Source: Escherichia phage 55. Taken from it: 64,000 bases of DNA. The notes beneath the pieces were generated by a model. It made no database searches. It saw nothing but the letters and a program-made list of their open reading frames with translations, and was not told the origin of the DNA. The translations under genes and the position numbers were made by a program. The first letter of the stretch is position 1; every line of letters starts with the position of its first letter. The DNA is taken from sequence record OQ599310. One strand, given 5' to 3'. Positions 47,559 through 61,839 of the stretch are shown in pieces.

Positions 47559-48293
47559 ATGGAGCTAATCTTTTTAAGCGGCATCAAACGTAGTGGTAAA
47601 GACACCACTGCTGATTACATCAATTCAAACTTTAAATCCGTAAAATATCAATTGGCATATCCAATTAAAGACGCTCTAGCAATAGCCTGGGGACGTAGGC
47701 ATGCTGAAAACCCTGATGTATTCACCGAGTTGAAATATGAATACTTTGAAGGCATTGGATACGACCGTGAAACACCATTAAATCTCAATAAGTTGGATGT
47801 TATTGAATTATTGGAAGAAGCGCTAATTTATTTGCAAAGTCAATATTTACCAATTAATAATGTTAAAGTATTATCATCATTAGAAGGTGGATATTCGTAT
47901 CTAGATATTAAACCATATGAAGCCCTGCGTGAAGCTATAAATAATATCAACGACACATGGTCAATCCGCCGTCTTATGCAAGCCCTCGGTACGGATGTTG
48001 TCGTTAATTTATTTGACCGTATGTATTGGGTTAAACTTTTTGCATTAAACTATATGGATTATATTGGAAGTGATTTCGATTACTATGTTGTGACCGATAC
48101 ACGCCAAGTCCATGAAATGGAAACCGCTAGAGCGATGGGTGCTACAGTTATTCATGTGGTTCGCTCCGGTACGGAATCCACCGATAAACATATTACAGAA
48201 GCTGGGTTGCCTATTGAAGAAGGCGATTTAGTTATTACAAACGACGGCTCTTTAGAAGAGCTTTATTCTAAAATTGAAACAATCTTAAGGTAA
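47559..48293 (+). CDS. 1: deoxynucleoside monophosphate kinase gp1
   Basis: 244 aa; P-loop GIKRSGKDT; synteny. Confidence 0.9.
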   Translation: MELIFLSGIKRSGKDTTADYINSNFKSVKYQLAYPIKDALAIAWGRRHAENPDVFTELKYEYFEGIGYDRETPLNLNKLDVIELLEEALIYLQSQYLPINNVKVLSSLEGGYSYLDIKPYEALREAINNINDTWSIRRLMQALGTDVVVNLFDRMYWVKLFALNYMDYIGSDFDYYVVTDTRQVHEMETARAMGATVIHVVRSGTESTDKHITEAGLPIEEGDLVITNDGSLEELYSKIETILR

Positions 48294-48297
48294 TAAA

Positions 48298-48983
<686 letters not shown>

Positions 48984-48997
48984 TTTTCACAAAACAG

Positions 48998-49026
48998 TTT
49001 ACATAAGGATGATGGTGTGATACTAT
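48998..49026 (+). promoter_or_regulatory. early promoter with stem-loop upstream of ipI
   Basis: TTTACA / TACTAT; inverted repeat GGATGAT..ATCATCC. Confidence 0.65.
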
Positions 49027-49060
49027 CATCCTATCAAATAAACAACCTCAAGGAAATAAA

Positions 49061-49348
49061 ATGAAAACCTATAAAGAATTTATATCACCTGTTGCTAACG
49101 TTTCTACTCTGACCGAAGCAACCCTTACTTCCGAAGTTATTAAAGCAAATAAAGGACGTGAGGGTAAACCGATGATTAGTCTGGTTGATGGTGAAGAAGT
49201 AAAAGGTACTGTTTACTTAGGTGATGGATGGTCTGCTAAGAAAGATGGCGCTACTGTTGTTATCTCTCCGGCCGAAGAGACCGCACTGTTTAAAGCTAAG
49301 CATATTTCTGTAGCTCAGCTTAAAATTATTGCAAAAACTCTTCTGTAA
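49061..49348 (+). CDS. ipI: internal protein I (capsid-targeted, injected)
   Basis: 95 aa; N-terminal MKTYKEFI CTS; body matches remembered T4 IPI. Confidence 0.9.
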   Translation: MKTYKEFISPVANVSTLTEATLTSEVIKANKGREGKPMISLVDGEEVKGTVYLGDGWSAKKDGATVVISPAEETALFKAKHISVAQLKIIAKTLL

Positions 49349-49352
49349 GTAG

Positions 49353-49381
49353 TTTACATGCTGATAGGACTATGTTATAGT
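49353..49381 (+). promoter_or_regulatory. early promoter with stem-loop
   Basis: TTTACA / TATAGT; palindrome GATAGGACTA..TAGTCCTATC. Confidence 0.65.
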
Positions 49382-49416
49382 AGTCCTATCAAATCAACAA
49401 CCAAACGGAAAAACAA

Positions 49417-49680
49417 ATGAAAACCTATAAAGAATTTATCGCTGAATCTCAATCTTCTACTCTGTCAGAGAACTACGAATCATTCTCTTACAACAACGAC
49501 CATGCAATGTTCTACGACCGAAACATCGGTACTTATGTCCATGTATGGGGTGTTAAAGATGGTAATGTAGTTGTTAAGAAAAACTCTAAAGAAGGCAACG
49601 GACGAGGCCAGGTAAAAATTACCAGCAAGAAAGCTATCCAAGCTTACGTCGATTATGTTAAACGCGAAGCTGGTATTTAA
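49417..49680 (+). CDS. CTS-bearing internal-protein-like protein (87 aa)
   Basis: N-terminus MKTYKEFIAE; first 23 nt identical to ipI start; early promoter 49353-49381. Confidence 0.75.
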   Translation: MKTYKEFIAESQSSTLSENYESFSYNNDHAMFYDRNIGTYVHVWGVKDGNVVVKKNSKEGNGRGQVKITSKKAIQAYVDYVKREAGI

Positions 49681-49683
49681 TAG

Positions 49684-49712
49684 TTTACATGATGATAGGA
49701 CTATGTTATAGT
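49684..49712 (+). promoter_or_regulatory. early promoter with stem-loop (same as 49353 copy)
   Basis: Same 40-nt promoter/palindrome sequence. Confidence 0.65.
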
Positions 49713-49749
49713 AGTCCTATCAAATCAAATGAGTAAATGGAGAAATAAA

Positions 49750-49935
49750 ATGAAACGCGCTGAACTGATTCGTAATGTTGCTATAGTAATTGCTTCAATG
49801 GCTTTTAGTTTTTCGATGTTTGTAGGATTCATTTGTGGACTACTGACAACAACTGAAAACTCTATCTCATTGGTAGTAGCATTTCTAATCGGCTTAATCG
49901 CTATCGTTATGGATAAAATTGCAAAAGGTGAGTAA
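49750..49935 (+). CDS. small membrane protein (61 aa)
   Basis: Hydrophobic helices; RBS GGAG; early promoter 49684-49712. Confidence 0.6.
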   Translation: MKRAELIRNVAIVIASMAFSFSMFVGFICGLLTTTENSISLVVAFLIGLIAIVMDKIAKGE

Positions 49936-49936
49936 A

Positions 49937-50299
49937 ATGAAATATCACGTATATGCGGATTTTGAAGCAAATCCTTCTAAAGACCCGGATTGTCGTTTAT
50001 TCCGTAATCCGTTTGATTCAGCAGCTCAAGCATGGGCCTGGATTAAAACTTGTACTCCTTCTTACACTTTCTTTGAAGTGGTAGATGATAATGGTGTTTT
50101 GCATCCAGAACCTACAGAAACTATTAATTTCCTTCTGTTTGCTGGTTATGACTGTTATCCTCTTGGTGGTATTGACGACCTTGTTGCTACAGGAAAAACT
50201 GTCGAAGCTCTTCGCGAAATTTATAAAAACGCAGAAGAAAATTTTGACTGGTATCATATTGTTGATGCTCATACCTTTGAAGTGGTGGAACATTCATGA
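49937..50299 (+). CDS. hypothetical protein
   Basis: 120 aa; ATG overlaps upstream stop. Confidence 0.6.
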   Translation: MKYHVYADFEANPSKDPDCRLFRNPFDSAAQAWAWIKTCTPSYTFFEVVDDNGVLHPEPTETINFLLFAGYDCYPLGGIDDLVATGKTVEALREIYKNAEENFDWYHIVDAHTFEVVEHS

Positions 50300-50586
50300 T
50301 TCTTTATGCTAAGGTAAAATCCGTTGAGAATGGATATGAAAGCGATCAACGTGCAGCTAAAGCACTAGTCGATTACTATGGTATTTTGACCCACTTTGAA
50401 GTTGAAAAGGTTTACGTCGACCGTTCATCTTCACAGGTTAAATTACTTTGGGAAGACCGCAAATTTAATAGTGTGAACTTTGATTTCTTTATTGAAACAG
50501 AAAAAGGCCCTCTTGAATATGATATTTTCAAGAATCCTTTGAAATTACGTTGCATTGAATATAATTACATTAATATGGTACGGTGA
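50296..50586 (+). CDS. hypothetical protein
   Basis: 96 aa; translationally coupled. Confidence 0.6.
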   Translation: MILYAKVKSVENGYESDQRAAKALVDYYGILTHFEVEKVYVDRSSSQVKLLWEDRKFNSVNFDFFIETEKGPLEYDIFKNPLKLRCIEYNYINMVR

Positions 50587-50590
50587 TTAA

Positions 50591-51106
50591 ATGAATATTC
50601 GTTTAGGCAGTACAATTCCTAAGGGCTACGTAATTGATGTCACTACCTATGAAAATGATGGTGACAACTATAAAACCAAAACATTGTTTGAAGTGGAAGA
50701 GCATGAGCTCCAACAGTTTAAATATCTCTTGAAGAAATTTAAGAGCCGTCATTCTAGCACCAAAGCCGAACGTTATTGTGGTAATACACCATTCAGTGAT
50801 TGCTCGCTTTTAATCTATGAATACTTGGTTGAAGGGCTGTTCTCAGACCAGCTTTATCCAGAATTCATTAAAAAGGTCTTTGGTATTGAAGTCGACCTCG
50901 GTAATAAATCTGAAGAAGATGAATCACGTGTATTCGACCTGTTCTTTGTGAAAGGCGATGAGATATCTCAAGGTCTTATTGATATTCTTGGCTATGCTTC
51001 TGAATACTATGATTACGATTTCTTGCGTGTAGTTGAACGTGTCGAATTTGCTTATATTGAAGAAGAAATCGTTTTGCCAACCGTTAAAATGTTTGATTTG
51101 CTTTAA
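50591..51106 (+). CDS. hypothetical protein
   Basis: 171 aa ORF in early operon. Confidence 0.6.
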   Translation: MNIRLGSTIPKGYVIDVTTYENDGDNYKTKTLFEVEEHELQQFKYLLKKFKSRHSSTKAERYCGNTPFSDCSLLIYEYLVEGLFSDQLYPEFIKKVFGIEVDLGNKSEEDESRVFDLFFVKGDEISQGLIDILGYASEYYDYDFLRVVERVEFAYIEEEIVLPTVKMFDLL

Positions 51107-51123
51107 GAATAATTTGTTATTAT
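51096..51123 (+). promoter_or_regulatory. candidate middle promoter upstream of tRNA genes
   Basis: TGCTTTA 51099-51105, 12 nt, TATTAT. Confidence 0.45.
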
Positions 51124-51185
51124 TAATTCATACCCTCTATTACCAAAGGTGCTCTAAAGTGCCTTTCATAATAGAAAGTTATTTA

Positions 51186-51259
51186 GGCCCTGTAGCTCAA
51201 CGGTTAGCAGCAGTCCCCTCATAAGGGAAAGGTTACCAGTTCGAATCTGGTCTGGGTCA
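51186..51259 (+). tRNA. tRNA with CAU anticodon (Met or lysidine-Ile type), imperfect stems
   Basis: Hand-folded cloverleaf: T-arm ACCAG/TTCGAAT/CTGGT, loop CTCATAA; one acceptor mismatch, 3-bp D stem, one G-A in anticodon stem. Confidence 0.55.
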
Positions 51260-51265
51260 TATATT

Positions 51266-51342
<77 letters not shown>

Positions 51343-51360
51343 ACTTTAAGTGAGGAAAAT

Positions 51361-51705
51361 ATGAAAGGCAATGTTTATCTGGTAGTTCATGATTTAACGT
51401 TTTATTTTAACGAATATGATACAGTTATTTCTCATCGATTGATTAATTCGCTGTATCAGCATGCCGATTACATCTATGTTCAAAATGAATTTGGTCATTG
51501 GAAGTTCATTAAAAACCGTTCCGGGTTAACTAGTTTTGAATACTTTGACCGTAAAGACCTTTTAAACGAAATCCCATTGCAACATCGGTTTCAGAAACGC
51601 GAATCATTATATTATTGCCGTCATATACCAAACGCCGAATGTGTTGATGAAGCAATTAATCTATGGCGTAGACGTAGAGAACAAATTGATGATATGCCAA
51701 AATAA
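51361..51705 (+). CDS. hypothetical protein
   Basis: ATG 51361 after GAGGAAAA RBS; ORF-track start 51313 lies inside tRNA-Arg. Confidence 0.6.
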   Translation: MKGNVYLVVHDLTFYFNEYDTVISHRLINSLYQHADYIYVQNEFGHWKFIKNRSGLTSFEYFDRKDLLNEIPLQHRFQKRESLYYCRHIPNAECVDEAINLWRRRREQIDDMPK

Positions 51706-56446: not shown

Positions 56447-56475
56447 TTTACAACAAGATAGGGCTATGTTATAGT
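56447..56475 (+). promoter_or_regulatory. early promoter with stem-loop
   Basis: TTTACA / TATAGT; palindrome GATAGGGCTA..TAGCCCTATC. Confidence 0.65.
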
Positions 56476-56503
56476 AGCCCTATCAAATTAAATGGAGTTC
56501 ACA

Positions 56504-56743
56504 ATGATTTATTACGAAAGTATCGGAACCAAAGTGGTTGGTAAAACCATTACTCGTGAAAAGTTTGCAAAGATATTCGATATGCGTTATAAAAAATCTG
56601 AACACAAAGGCATCCGATTCGAAGATGCGCACTGTACAATTTGCCCTTATAATGAAGACATAAACGGTACAATCGTTCCATTGGTAGAGGCTTCACATGA
56701 TGACCTCTGGGATGAATATAATATCGCATGTCGTGAAATTTAA
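56504..56743 (+). CDS. hypothetical protein
   Basis: 79 aa; RBS GGAG; early promoter 56447-56475. Confidence 0.6.
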   Translation: MIYYESIGTKVVGKTITREKFAKIFDMRYKKSEHKGIRFEDAHCTICPYNEDINGTIVPLVEASHDDLWDEYNIACREI

Positions 56744-58006: not shown

Positions 58007-58035
58007 TGTACAAACTGATAGGACTATGTTATAGT
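58007..58035 (+). promoter_or_regulatory. early promoter with stem-loop (third GATAGGACTA copy)
   Basis: TGTACA / TATAGT. Confidence 0.6.
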
Positions 58036-58063
58036 AGTCCTATTAAAACATGAGGAGAATATT

Positions 58064-58369
58064 ATGAAATTAGGCGAAACCAACCGAATCGGTCTTTTAA
58101 CAATATTTGTATCACTTTTTTACGCAGCTCTTTCTGTTGCAGTATTACAAAAGGCTTACAGTATGGATGGTGTTCCTGGTTTTGTATTCTTATCGCCGTT
58201 TTTGCTATTCGTTGGAGCATTGTTATTATATGCCACGACTAGTTTCGACCATAACGTCTGGGTCAATTATAAATGTAAATTGTCTGAAGAAGAACACGCA
58301 GAAGCTCGTAAAAAAGCTATTGAATCTACCAATCTAGAAAATTTCATTAAAGAATGTCGAGGAAAATAA
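58064..58369 (+). CDS. membrane protein ending ENFIKECRGK
   Basis: 101 aa, two hydrophobic helices; early promoter 58007-58035. Confidence 0.65.
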   Translation: MKLGETNRIGLLTIFVSLFYAALSVAVLQKAYSMDGVPGFVFLSPFLLFVGALLLYATTSFDHNVWVNYKCKLSEEEHAEARKKAIESTNLENFIKECRGK

Positions 58370-60236: not shown

Positions 60237-60262
60237 ATACCTCCTATAAACGTGGGAGGTAT
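60237..60262 (+). promoter_or_regulatory. hairpin sequestering the Shine-Dalgarno of gene e
   Basis: 8-bp stem ATACCTCC / GGAGGTAT; SD GGAGG sits in the 3' arm; loop TATAAACGTG. Confidence 0.7.
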
Positions 60263-60263
60263 T

Positions 60264-60752
60264 ATGAATATATTTGAAATGCTTCGTAATGACGAAGGTC
60301 TTAGACTGACTTTATACAAAGACACTGAAGGCTTTTGGACAATTGGCATAGGCCATTTAGTAACAAAGAACCCGTCTTTAGCCGTAGCTAAAGCTGAACT
60401 CGACAGAATGATCGGACGTAAATGCAACGGTACAATTACCCTTGATGAGGCTGAAAAGCTATTTAATGAAGACGTTGATAAAGCCGTTCGCGGAATTTTG
60501 GGTAATGCTAAACTTAAACCGGTATATGATTCTTTAGATGCGGTTCGTCGATGTGCATTGGTCAATATGGTCTTCCAAATGGGTGTAGCAGGCGTCGCCG
60601 GTTTTACTAATTCTCTTCGTATGCTTCAACAGAAACGTTGGGATGAAGCGGCAGTAAATCTAGCCCAATCTAAATGGTATCGTCAGACACCTAATCGCGC
60701 GAAACGCGTAATCTCAACATTTAAAACAGGAACTTGGAAAGCGTATATATGA
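60264..60752 (+). CDS. e: lysozyme (endolysin)
   Basis: MNIFEMLR...DEAEKLFN...[13 protein letters not shown] matches T4 lysozyme; start ATG 60264 after GGAGG; track start 60252 is GTG. Confidence 0.97.
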
Positions 60753-61030
60753 AAACATATAGCGAATTTTTATCAGAATCTATTCTTAACGAAGCTACTG
60801 ACACATTTGCAACTAAGCTAGGTGCCGCTTTGGTTGAAGCCGAAAGTCTATTAGCACGTATTTCTGAACTTGCTAGTAAGATAGATACTCGCAAATTTGA
60901 GCGCACCAGTGATATCGTTAAGCTTGAAGCACTGTTGCGTATGTGCGATAAACCCGAAGAAATCGCTAAGAACGGCTCGCTGATGAAACAACGTCTTGAA
61001 AAATATATTTCAGGCGCTTCAGAAAAATAG
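60749..61030 (+). CDS. CTS-bearing internal-protein-like protein (94 aa; IPII/IPIII position)
   Basis: N-terminus [10 protein letters not shown]; ATGA overlap with e stop. Confidence 0.75.
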
Positions 61031-61032
61031 TG

Positions 61033-61062
61033 TTTACTTCCTCCAAGGGTTTTGATACTATA
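61033..61062 (+). promoter_or_regulatory. early promoter upstream of denV
   Basis: GTTTACT ... TGATACTAT. Confidence 0.55.
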
Positions 61063-61088
61063 CATCTATCAACTACTTGGAGGAAATT

Positions 61089-61502
61089 ATGACTCGTATC
61101 AATTTAACACTTGTTTCTGAACTGACCGACCAACATCTTATGGCTGAGTATCGTGAATTACCACGCGTATTTGGTGCAGTCCGTAAACATGTTCAAAATG
61201 GTAAACGTGTAAAAGATTTTAAAATCTCTCCAACATTTATCTTAGGCACAGGTCACGTAACATTCTTTTATGACAAACTCGAATTTTTACGTTTACGTCA
61301 AATCGAGCTAATCGCGGAATGTTTAAAACGCGGTTTCAAAATCAAGGACACGACAGTCCAGGATATTTCCGACATTCCTGTAGAATTTCGTAATAATTAT
61401 GTCCCGTCCGAAGCGTCCATTTCGATAAGTCAAGCACGCTTAGATGAAAAAATTGCTCAACGTCCGACTTGGTACAAATACTATGGTAAATCAATTTACT
61501 AA
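61089..61502 (+). CDS. denV: endonuclease V (pyrimidine dimer DNA glycosylase)
   Basis: [12 protein letters not shown]...[10 protein letters not shown] matches remembered T4 DenV; track start 61077 is TTG. Confidence 0.95.
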
Positions 61503-61509
61503 GGAAAAA

Positions 61510-61839
61510 ATGAAAACATATCAAGAGTTTATCACTGAAGTTACATTATCTGCGGAACAGAAAGCTGCTATCGAAGAAAGTAAAAATCCCAAAGTAACAT
61601 ATAAAGTAAATAGTAAAGGCGTTTTTGATGGCTTGGTTCAAGACCCTGAATTGAAAAAAGCTCTTTCTAAAACTAATGCGTACTTTGCTCCTAAATTTAA
61701 CACAGCAGGTGTACTTATTGGATTGGATGTATTCAACTCTAAAGGTGTTCTATCTAATGCCTTTGGTTATGCCGCTAACAAAATTACCAAAGCCGCATGG
61801 GAATCCAATACCAAACAAGCTCAAAAGCCTAGAGTATAA
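61510..61839 (+). CDS. CTS-bearing internal-protein-like protein (109 aa)
   Basis: MKTYQEFITE at internal Met after AAGGAAAAA RBS. Confidence 0.75.
   Translation: MKTYQEFITEVTLSAEQKAAIEESKNPKVTYKVNSKGVFDGLVQDPELKKALSKTNAYFAPKFNTAGVLIGLDVFNSKGVLSNAFGYAANKITKAAWESNTKQAQKPRV

Follow-up and report, generated by a model that had tools for sequence, protein, structure and literature searches.

Evidence for a CTS-bearing cassette gene at the ipI locus of an RB69-like phage

Within a 64,000-nucleotide stretch of Escherichia phage 55 (record OQ599310; hereafter the window), we analysed the gene of an 87-aa precursor, referred to below as X (49417-49680, + strand), an ORF that is a candidate internal (injected) protein (IP). 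X is almost certainly a cassette gene of an IP locus that bears a capsid targeting sequence (CTS) and, as far as such a protein can be recognised from its sequence, it has every feature that defines an internal protein. We put the chances slightly above even that X is, along the whole chain of events, a packaged and injected anti-defence protein; in that chain we infer packaging, cleavage, injection, the timing of expression and the target.

IPs are diverse defence proteins with the CTS as their only common part (Rao and Black 2010, PMC3012670), and Kuhn and Thomas (2022, PMC9026906) suggest that evolution has used the CTS as a means of loading a variety of proteins. There are more than 30 IP variants, and PeSL-like elements, which in the summary of Repoila et al. 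1994 given by Arbiol et al. 2010 (PMC2839356) lie at two variable IP loci, may restrict IP shuffling to these loci (PMC2839356). Leader-mediated exchange is already known: it was described in 1994, has been reviewed since and is textbook matter for T-even phages. New here are X itself, which the databases leave unnamed or label hypothetical, and its CTS-less relatives at non-IP loci, which point to recruitment from a pool of cytoplasmic early genes. Petrov 2010 contains nothing on IPs, and a literature search on Ip7 and Ip9 returned unrelated fields only.

Locus, leader and propeptide of X

The region of X is 100% identical to that of Escherichia phage vB_Eco_NicPhage, a Mosigvirus (RB69-like T-even phage). 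On the + strand, gp3 lies upstream of gene 1 (dNMP kinase, 47559-48293), which is followed by 57A (48298-48528), 57B (48528-48983), identified as the Acb1 anti-CBASS phosphodiesterase (Pfam Acb1, E 1e-58), and ipI (49061-49348), the gene of internal protein I of the GmrSD inhibitor family (Pfam IPI_T4, E 3e-50; PDB 2jub, E 8e-42). Downstream of X are a 61-aa membrane ORF resembling trna.4 (49750-49935), trna.3-like and trna.2-like ORFs, a 171-aa ORF, tRNA-Met and tRNA-Arg. The position of X between ipI and trna.4, downstream of 57B, is that of a variable IP locus. Hobbs et al. (2022, PMC9117128) recognised that in T4 an anti-defence island is made up of acb1 and ipI; here, 57B/Acb1, ipI and X form such an island. 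In several related phage records, 57B is called hypothetical or 'RNA ligase'.

The window also contains a second IP locus (60252-61839, +), with lysozyme e (60252-60752), a 93-aa CTS protein (60749-61030; phrog_3499, internal head protein), denV (61089-61502) and a 109-aa CTS protein that starts with MKTYQEFITE (61510-61839; phrog_3966, labelled 'unknown function' despite its CTS).

The initial annotation stated that X and ipI are identical over their first 23 nt, which proved correct: the string occurs exactly twice in the window, at the two gene starts, and none is expected by chance (0 matches in 100 shuffles). The run of identity reaches 2 nt 5' of the ATG (25 nt in total), and a second common block, TTCTACTCTG, encodes S-T-L just before the L-x-E motif, so that the resemblance between the propeptides of ipI (MKTYKEFISPVANVSTLTE) and X (MKTYKEFIAESQSSTLSE) spans their whole length.

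IP propeptides comprise 10-19 residues, the prohead protease gp21 cuts after L/I-X-E, and the first 10 residues of IPIII are enough for packaging foreign proteins such as GFP or beta-galactosidase, residues 4 and 7 being required for targeting and residues 8 and 10 for processing (PMC9026906). In X, codons 1-10 (49417-49446, +) encode the putative CTS MKTYKEFIAE, which resembles MKTYQEFIAE; its Y4, F7, I8 and E10 match the positions defined in IPIII (criteria of PMC9026906), and the gp21 motif I-A-E occupies residues 8-10. Codons 11-18 (49447-49470, +) encode a second propeptide segment, SQSSTLSE, which ends in a second gp21 motif, L-S-E. These two motifs, at 8-10 and 16-18, are the only [LI]-x-E motifs in the protein, and the predicted propeptide, within the range of 10-19 residues, ends in such a motif. 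Segment 11-18 parallels ...VSTLTE of the ipI leader, right after which IPI* begins; Pfam and PDB 2jub both start the mature IPI at residue 20, directly after L-T-E.

T4 IPI/IPI* (2jub) and X are alike in their adjacent genes, the 25-nt start, a propeptide of 18-19 aa ending in L-[ST]-E, and the size and charge of the mature protein; they are unlike in the mature part, which shares neither sequence nor profile similarity, and in the IPI leader of the window, where I-x-E is missing at 8-10. This ipI leader (49061-49120, +) starts with MKTYKEFISP, lacks the I-x-E that X and Ip7 have, and retains only L-T-E at 17-19, where IPI* begins; T4-type IPI (MKTFKEFTST...ITE) follows the same pattern. Engineered CTS fusions (Hong, Mullaney and Black: CTS-GFP, CTS-nuclease, IPIII-beta-galactosidase) have shown that a 10-residue tag on a non-head protein leads to packaging and injection (PMC9026906), and X, with a longer, two-site propeptide and presumed packaging, looks like their natural equivalent.

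Comparison of 14 natural variants of X shows that 7 of the 18 leader positions vary, versus 3 of the 69 mature positions (Fisher p = 4e-4). Y4, F7 and the motifs I-[AT]-E and L-[ST]-E are invariant in all 14; the CTS differs only by K/Q at position 5 and A/T at position 9, and residues 12-15 and 17 vary, with QSSTLS, QSSTLT, ESFALT and QNVALT as linker alleles. The K/Q choice at position 5 also occurs in the leaders of other ip genes, which together with the ipI-like QNVALT allele indicates exchange among leaders. At the DNA level, pN/pS among natural variants is approximately 0.25 in the leader and approximately 0.04 in the mature part (pS up to 0.28), and the latter value marks X as a constrained, real gene under purifying selection. 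That X is a spurious ORF is ruled out by its conservation, by this pN/pS of approximately 0.04, by homologues in other genera and by a confidently predicted fold. X is found at 95% identity or above in 28 phage records, each of which labels it hypothetical, and is missing from many sister phages, so that it is dispensable.

A late promoter (TATAAATA) was not found on the + strand from 48000 to 51500, the nearest one on this strand being at 47936-47943, inside gene 1 and upstream of 57A; synthesis of X during head assembly is therefore an assumption. Read-through from 47936 could cover 57A, acb1, ipI and X, and a terminator-like hairpin is located at 48246-48262.

The lack of a nearby late promoter, together with the early promoter that X has of its own, would fit a cytoplasmic early protein that is not packaged and whose CTS-like start arose incidentally when the gene recombined with ip genes next to it. 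The same reading agrees with the absence of a leader in all other members of the X family (see below) and with the leader being the most variable, mosaic part of X. It does not explain, however, why both gp21 motifs, Y4 and F7 are kept in all 14 variants although the intervening residues differ, nor why the ordered part of the predicted fold begins just past the second cleavage site; moreover, because the 10-residue IPIII start packages foreign proteins, X should be packaged if it is present during head assembly. We therefore regard an unpackaged X as improbable and retain the reading of X as a packaged precursor. A literature search for a proteomic record of X found none.

The mature domain and its CTS-less relatives

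The mature protein computed for X is small and basic (69-77 aa, pI 9.2-9.4). The form predicted for residues 19-87 (49471-49677, +) has 69 aa, a mass of 7.9 kDa, a pI of 9.4 and 11 K+R vs. 7 D+E, and consists of a beta sheet and a C-terminal helix. The AF2 model based on a 14-sequence alignment (pLDDT 87, pTM 0.75) has five strands followed by the C-terminal helix, with an ordered core that begins at about residue 20, just past the second cleavage motif; a model from a 2-sequence alignment (pLDDT 47) was discarded.

According to the initial annotation, the mature domain is unrelated to that of ipI. This statement held when the domain was compared, by hhalign, BLASTP and fold search, to IPI, Ip7, an Ip9-like protein and the two other CTS proteins of the window, and nothing in the comparison with these proteins supported a diverged IPI. 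In BLASTP, the best E values of X were 2-39 against this set, in which Ip7 was represented by two variants. The mature domain does not belong to the IPI family (Pfam PF11634, PDB 2jub), and X falls outside the families of Ip7 and Ip9-like proteins (phrog_2667, phrog_7673) and those of the window's CTS proteins (phrog_3499, phrog_3966); phrog_3966, the family of the 109-aa protein, is matched weakly (E 9.6e-5, residues 1-78). A K-D-G-x-x-V-V stretch common to X and IPI was considered as a trace of divergence from IPI and rejected, as hhalign aligns only 10 columns with a probability of 0.08%, and 2jub is not among the matches listed.

X is assigned to phrog_13302 (function unassigned), the profile of which spans residues 16-87 only. 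Searches of X and its relatives against Pfam, NCBIfam and PADLOC found no family, and an HMM profile search against PDB sequences gave only noise (E of at least 0.88). All 14 sequences in the 90% cluster of X are without a name or labelled hypothetical, and X is distinguished from Ip5-Ip14-type proteins by the lack of any Ip name in this cluster. In Foldseek searches with the X model, nothing in PDB was significant (best E 0.9), and BFVD yielded the X family itself only; the fold matches listed do not include IPI* (2jub), although the PDB sequence set contains it. The top fold match is the anti-CRISPR AcrIF13 (PDB 7fi4; 7% identity), with LolA and polo-box proteins scoring nearly as high. The resemblance to AcrIF13 is that of a common beta-sheet-plus-helix fold and not a sign of shared function; the fold matches of X are generic and suggest no function.

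Known T-even ipI-locus cassettes (IPI, Ip7, Ip9 and others), as summarised in later papers (Repoila et al. 1994 via PMC2839356; PMC12373910), share with X the locus, the CTS with a gp21 site, small, basic and unrelated mature domains, promoter/stem-loop repeats, and a presence that varies among close relatives. X differs from them in that its mature domain matches none of those compared and in that it is not called an internal protein in any database record. The X domain, moreover, occurs outside IP loci, without a CTS and in other genera, unlike what was noted for IP genes in PMC2839356.

Protein database searches, a check that the initial annotation had proposed, identified a small family. 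A single-sequence search of 5.8 billion proteins found only X and one 73-aa Dhakavirus protein (63% identity), whereas an exhaustive profile search followed by a second profile search expanded the family to 13 clusters of 47-93 aa. A 3562-aa match in the exhaustive search (P0016) covers only a 26-residue stretch repeated four times and was left aside as probably low-complexity. Of the 13 clusters, 12 have no CTS and start with, e.g., MKTLNINS, MTIQINS, MYTLNSF or MINFTEA. These CTS-less relatives occupy early regions of T4-like phages: the Dhakavirus homologue lies between gene 52 and motA, flanked by an early promoter and a hairpin element that ends in CCTATCAAA, another follows genes for a gp41-like helicase and a dexA-like protein, and a third adjoins cef and gene 39; Shewanella phage Thanatos-1 and Pectobacterium phage PM2 have homologues as well. 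The Dhakavirus homologue between gene 52 and motA is located at 2995-3216 of L004 (Dhakavirus IME341), and in the IME08 records (HM071924) it is present without any annotation.

Because all other members of the family lack the CTS, parsimony places the gain of the leader in the Mosigvirus lineage, and X looks as if it was recruited from a family of cytoplasmic early genes. Under this scenario, a small early protein that T4-like phages use in the cytoplasm would have entered the ipI locus and subsequently acquired an IP leader. A more general proposition, to which we assign somewhat less than an even chance, is that the injected repertoire of T-even phages is replenished by capturing cytoplasmic early accessory genes. 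X would then exemplify natural CTS-tagging, in which an early protein family of approximately 70 aa, travelling among hyperplastic regions on promoter-hairpin cassettes, landed by ipI in a single genus, Mosigvirus, and gained an 18-aa, two-site propeptide through recombination with a neighbouring ip leader, turning a post-infection inhibitor into one delivered with the DNA. If this is true and the CTS-less and CTS-bearing forms share a host target, the pair would show directly how the timing of delivery is selected in the arms race. The CTS-less relatives offer a natural control for what pre-packaging adds.

Proposed function

Under the preferred reading, X would be synthesised as a precursor of 87 aa, its gene being transcribed from its own early-type promoter and possibly by late read-through from 47936 as well. 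Guided by the CTS, the precursor would enter the prohead's scaffolding core, where gp21 would cut off the propeptide behind I-A-E(10) and, probably, behind L-S-E(18); a basic protein of approximately 69 aa would remain in the head with the DNA and be injected at the next infection. The injected protein would most likely bind and block a defence protein of the host directed at incoming phage DNA, the leading candidate being a GmrSD-type Type IV restriction enzyme. Ip1, Ip2 and Ip3 of T4 have been shown to inhibit one GmrSD Type IV enzyme each, a distinct one in every case, and the remaining Ip-locus genes are predicted to do likewise (Silas et al., PMC12373910). The locus and the analogy with Ip1-3 suggest that X, too, has a GmrSD enzyme as its specific target; we propose this only tentatively, as a possibility with odds below even.

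The basic composition of mature X (pI 9.4, 11 K+R vs. 7 D+E) would also suit a protein that is packaged via its CTS but acts mainly as a DNA-associated head protein, in charge neutralisation, packaging or head assembly, rather than as a specific inhibitor. Such a role has been proposed for part of the IPIII phenotype, given that IP lysines touch packaged DNA and that IPIII mutants are slower in head assembly (PMC3012670; PMC9026906). A structural need is, however, ill-suited to a slot that may be empty or carry unrelated proteins, CTS-less homologues cannot function in the head, all three T4 IPs have specific GmrSD targets, and the very strong conservation of the mature sequence suggests a specific binding surface. 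A mainly structural function of X thus seems quite unlikely, and we favour a specific inhibitor.

An injected inhibitor might, however, be directed at something other than a Type IV enzyme, such as a DNA-sensing or abortive-infection system, or might modulate a host function such as transcription. The CTS-less homologues lie near motA, gene 52, cef and dexA-like genes and not beside restriction inhibitors; as these relatives function without a CTS, the domain does not need injection, and its target may differ from a nuclease that attacks incoming DNA. The neighbouring Acb1 targets CBASS, so that the island extends beyond restriction, and the best fold match is an anti-CRISPR protein. Yet every IP whose target is known inhibits a GmrSD enzyme, and neither the sequence nor the fold of X indicates another specific target; we consider a different class of target unlikely, while giving it some weight.

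On the reading preferred here, X is a candidate for inhibiting some defence of E. coli or Shigella to which no inhibitor has yet been matched. The candidate defences include those directed against the arabinosyl-hmC DNA of RB69-like phages; DNA of the RB69 type carries arabinosyl-hmC and is restricted by GmrSD enzymes, one of which (UTI89) spares T4 (PMC6024577). RB69-like phages are frequent among therapeutic and O157-typing isolates, and the presence or absence of X may therefore influence host range.

The promoter-hairpin cassette and exchange of slot contents

X is located between two 48-nt direct repeats that are 98% identical. The upstream element (49350-49397, +) combines an early promoter, TTTACA-17-TATAGT, with an overlapping 11-12-bp stem (dG -17.7 kcal/mol, z -5.4); the downstream element (49681-49728, +) is also the promoter of the next gene. 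A diverged third copy precedes ipI (48995-49042, +), with another stem sequence and a conserved hairpin (dG -15.4 kcal/mol, z -3.9), so that the hairpins of the repeats range from -15 to -18 kcal/mol in dG and from -3.9 to -5.4 in z. Further copies are present at 56457-56486 and 58017-58046 (+), before small ORFs at 56492-56743 and 58064-58369, respectively. In the copy at 56457, GGGCT/AGCCC replaces GGACT/AGTCC, a compensatory stem change that indicates selection on the hairpin itself.

With promoter and stem-loop direct repeats on both sides and an indel junction inside the repeats (in WFL6982), X has the organisation of a PeSL-like cassette. PeSL cassettes of T4-type phages (Arbiol et al. 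2010; Comeau et al. 2014) likewise comprise an early promoter and a stable hairpin in approximately 48 nt, flank variable small ORFs as direct repeats and contain indel junctions. The elements at T-even IP loci are analogues, not homologues, of the RB49/phi1 PeSLs: they are AT-richer, have no G/C-run stems and contain T4-type early promoters (Arbiol et al., PMC2839356); the -35/-10 motifs of the X elements are those given above.

The initial annotation also suggested CTS-mediated modular exchange and a comparison with the ip loci of other phages, and in sister phages the content of the slot indeed swaps between relatives. The same slot holds Ip7 or Ip9-like genes, both annotated as internal head proteins, in some sister phages. 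We observed ipI followed by X in the window, JK45, NHEP10, NHEP36 and others, and in O157 typing phage 6, where a different downstream ORF follows; ipI alone in WFL6982 and many others; X alone in DCP548 and UGJNEcP1 and, by match geometry, in ST0; ipI with Ip7 in Shf125875; Ip7 with an Ip9-like gene in mogra, pEB20 and phiE142; X with an Ip9-like gene in RPN187; and, in EP32B, a CTS stub fused to trna.4, which is a deletion scar.

The junctions themselves support the suggested exchange through the leader. In DCP548 and UGJNEcP1, where ipI is gone, the ipI-type promoter, RBS and codon 3 (ACC) are joined to the body of X; in RPN187, from which ipI is also gone, X has the ipI-type RBS with ACG as codon 3, and in phiE142 Ip7 stands behind an ipI-type RBS and leader. 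The difference between ACC and ACG at codon 3 implies at least two crossover positions inside the common leader. In WFL6982, which has ipI only, the deletion junction lies inside the pair of hairpin repeats, and ipI-only phages suggest that these repeats are a second recombination substrate besides the leader, and probably the main one. Taken together, the junctions in the repeat and in the leader provide direct evidence that both serve as recombination joints, at which X would be gained, lost and swapped, and these natural deletion junctions reveal the short sequences that the phage uses for shuffling IP genes.

In vB_EcoP_EP32B (L010, 672-920), the start MKTYQEFI is in frame with the trna.4-like membrane ORF via a remnant of the hairpin element, every IP cassette having been deleted, with the join at a short TTAT microhomology. 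The Ip9-like gene that follows X in RPN187 (L016, 810-1082) encodes a 90-aa variant that starts with MKTFKEFINE, and the ORF that replaces trna.4 in O157 typing phage 6 lies at 839-1144 of L014.
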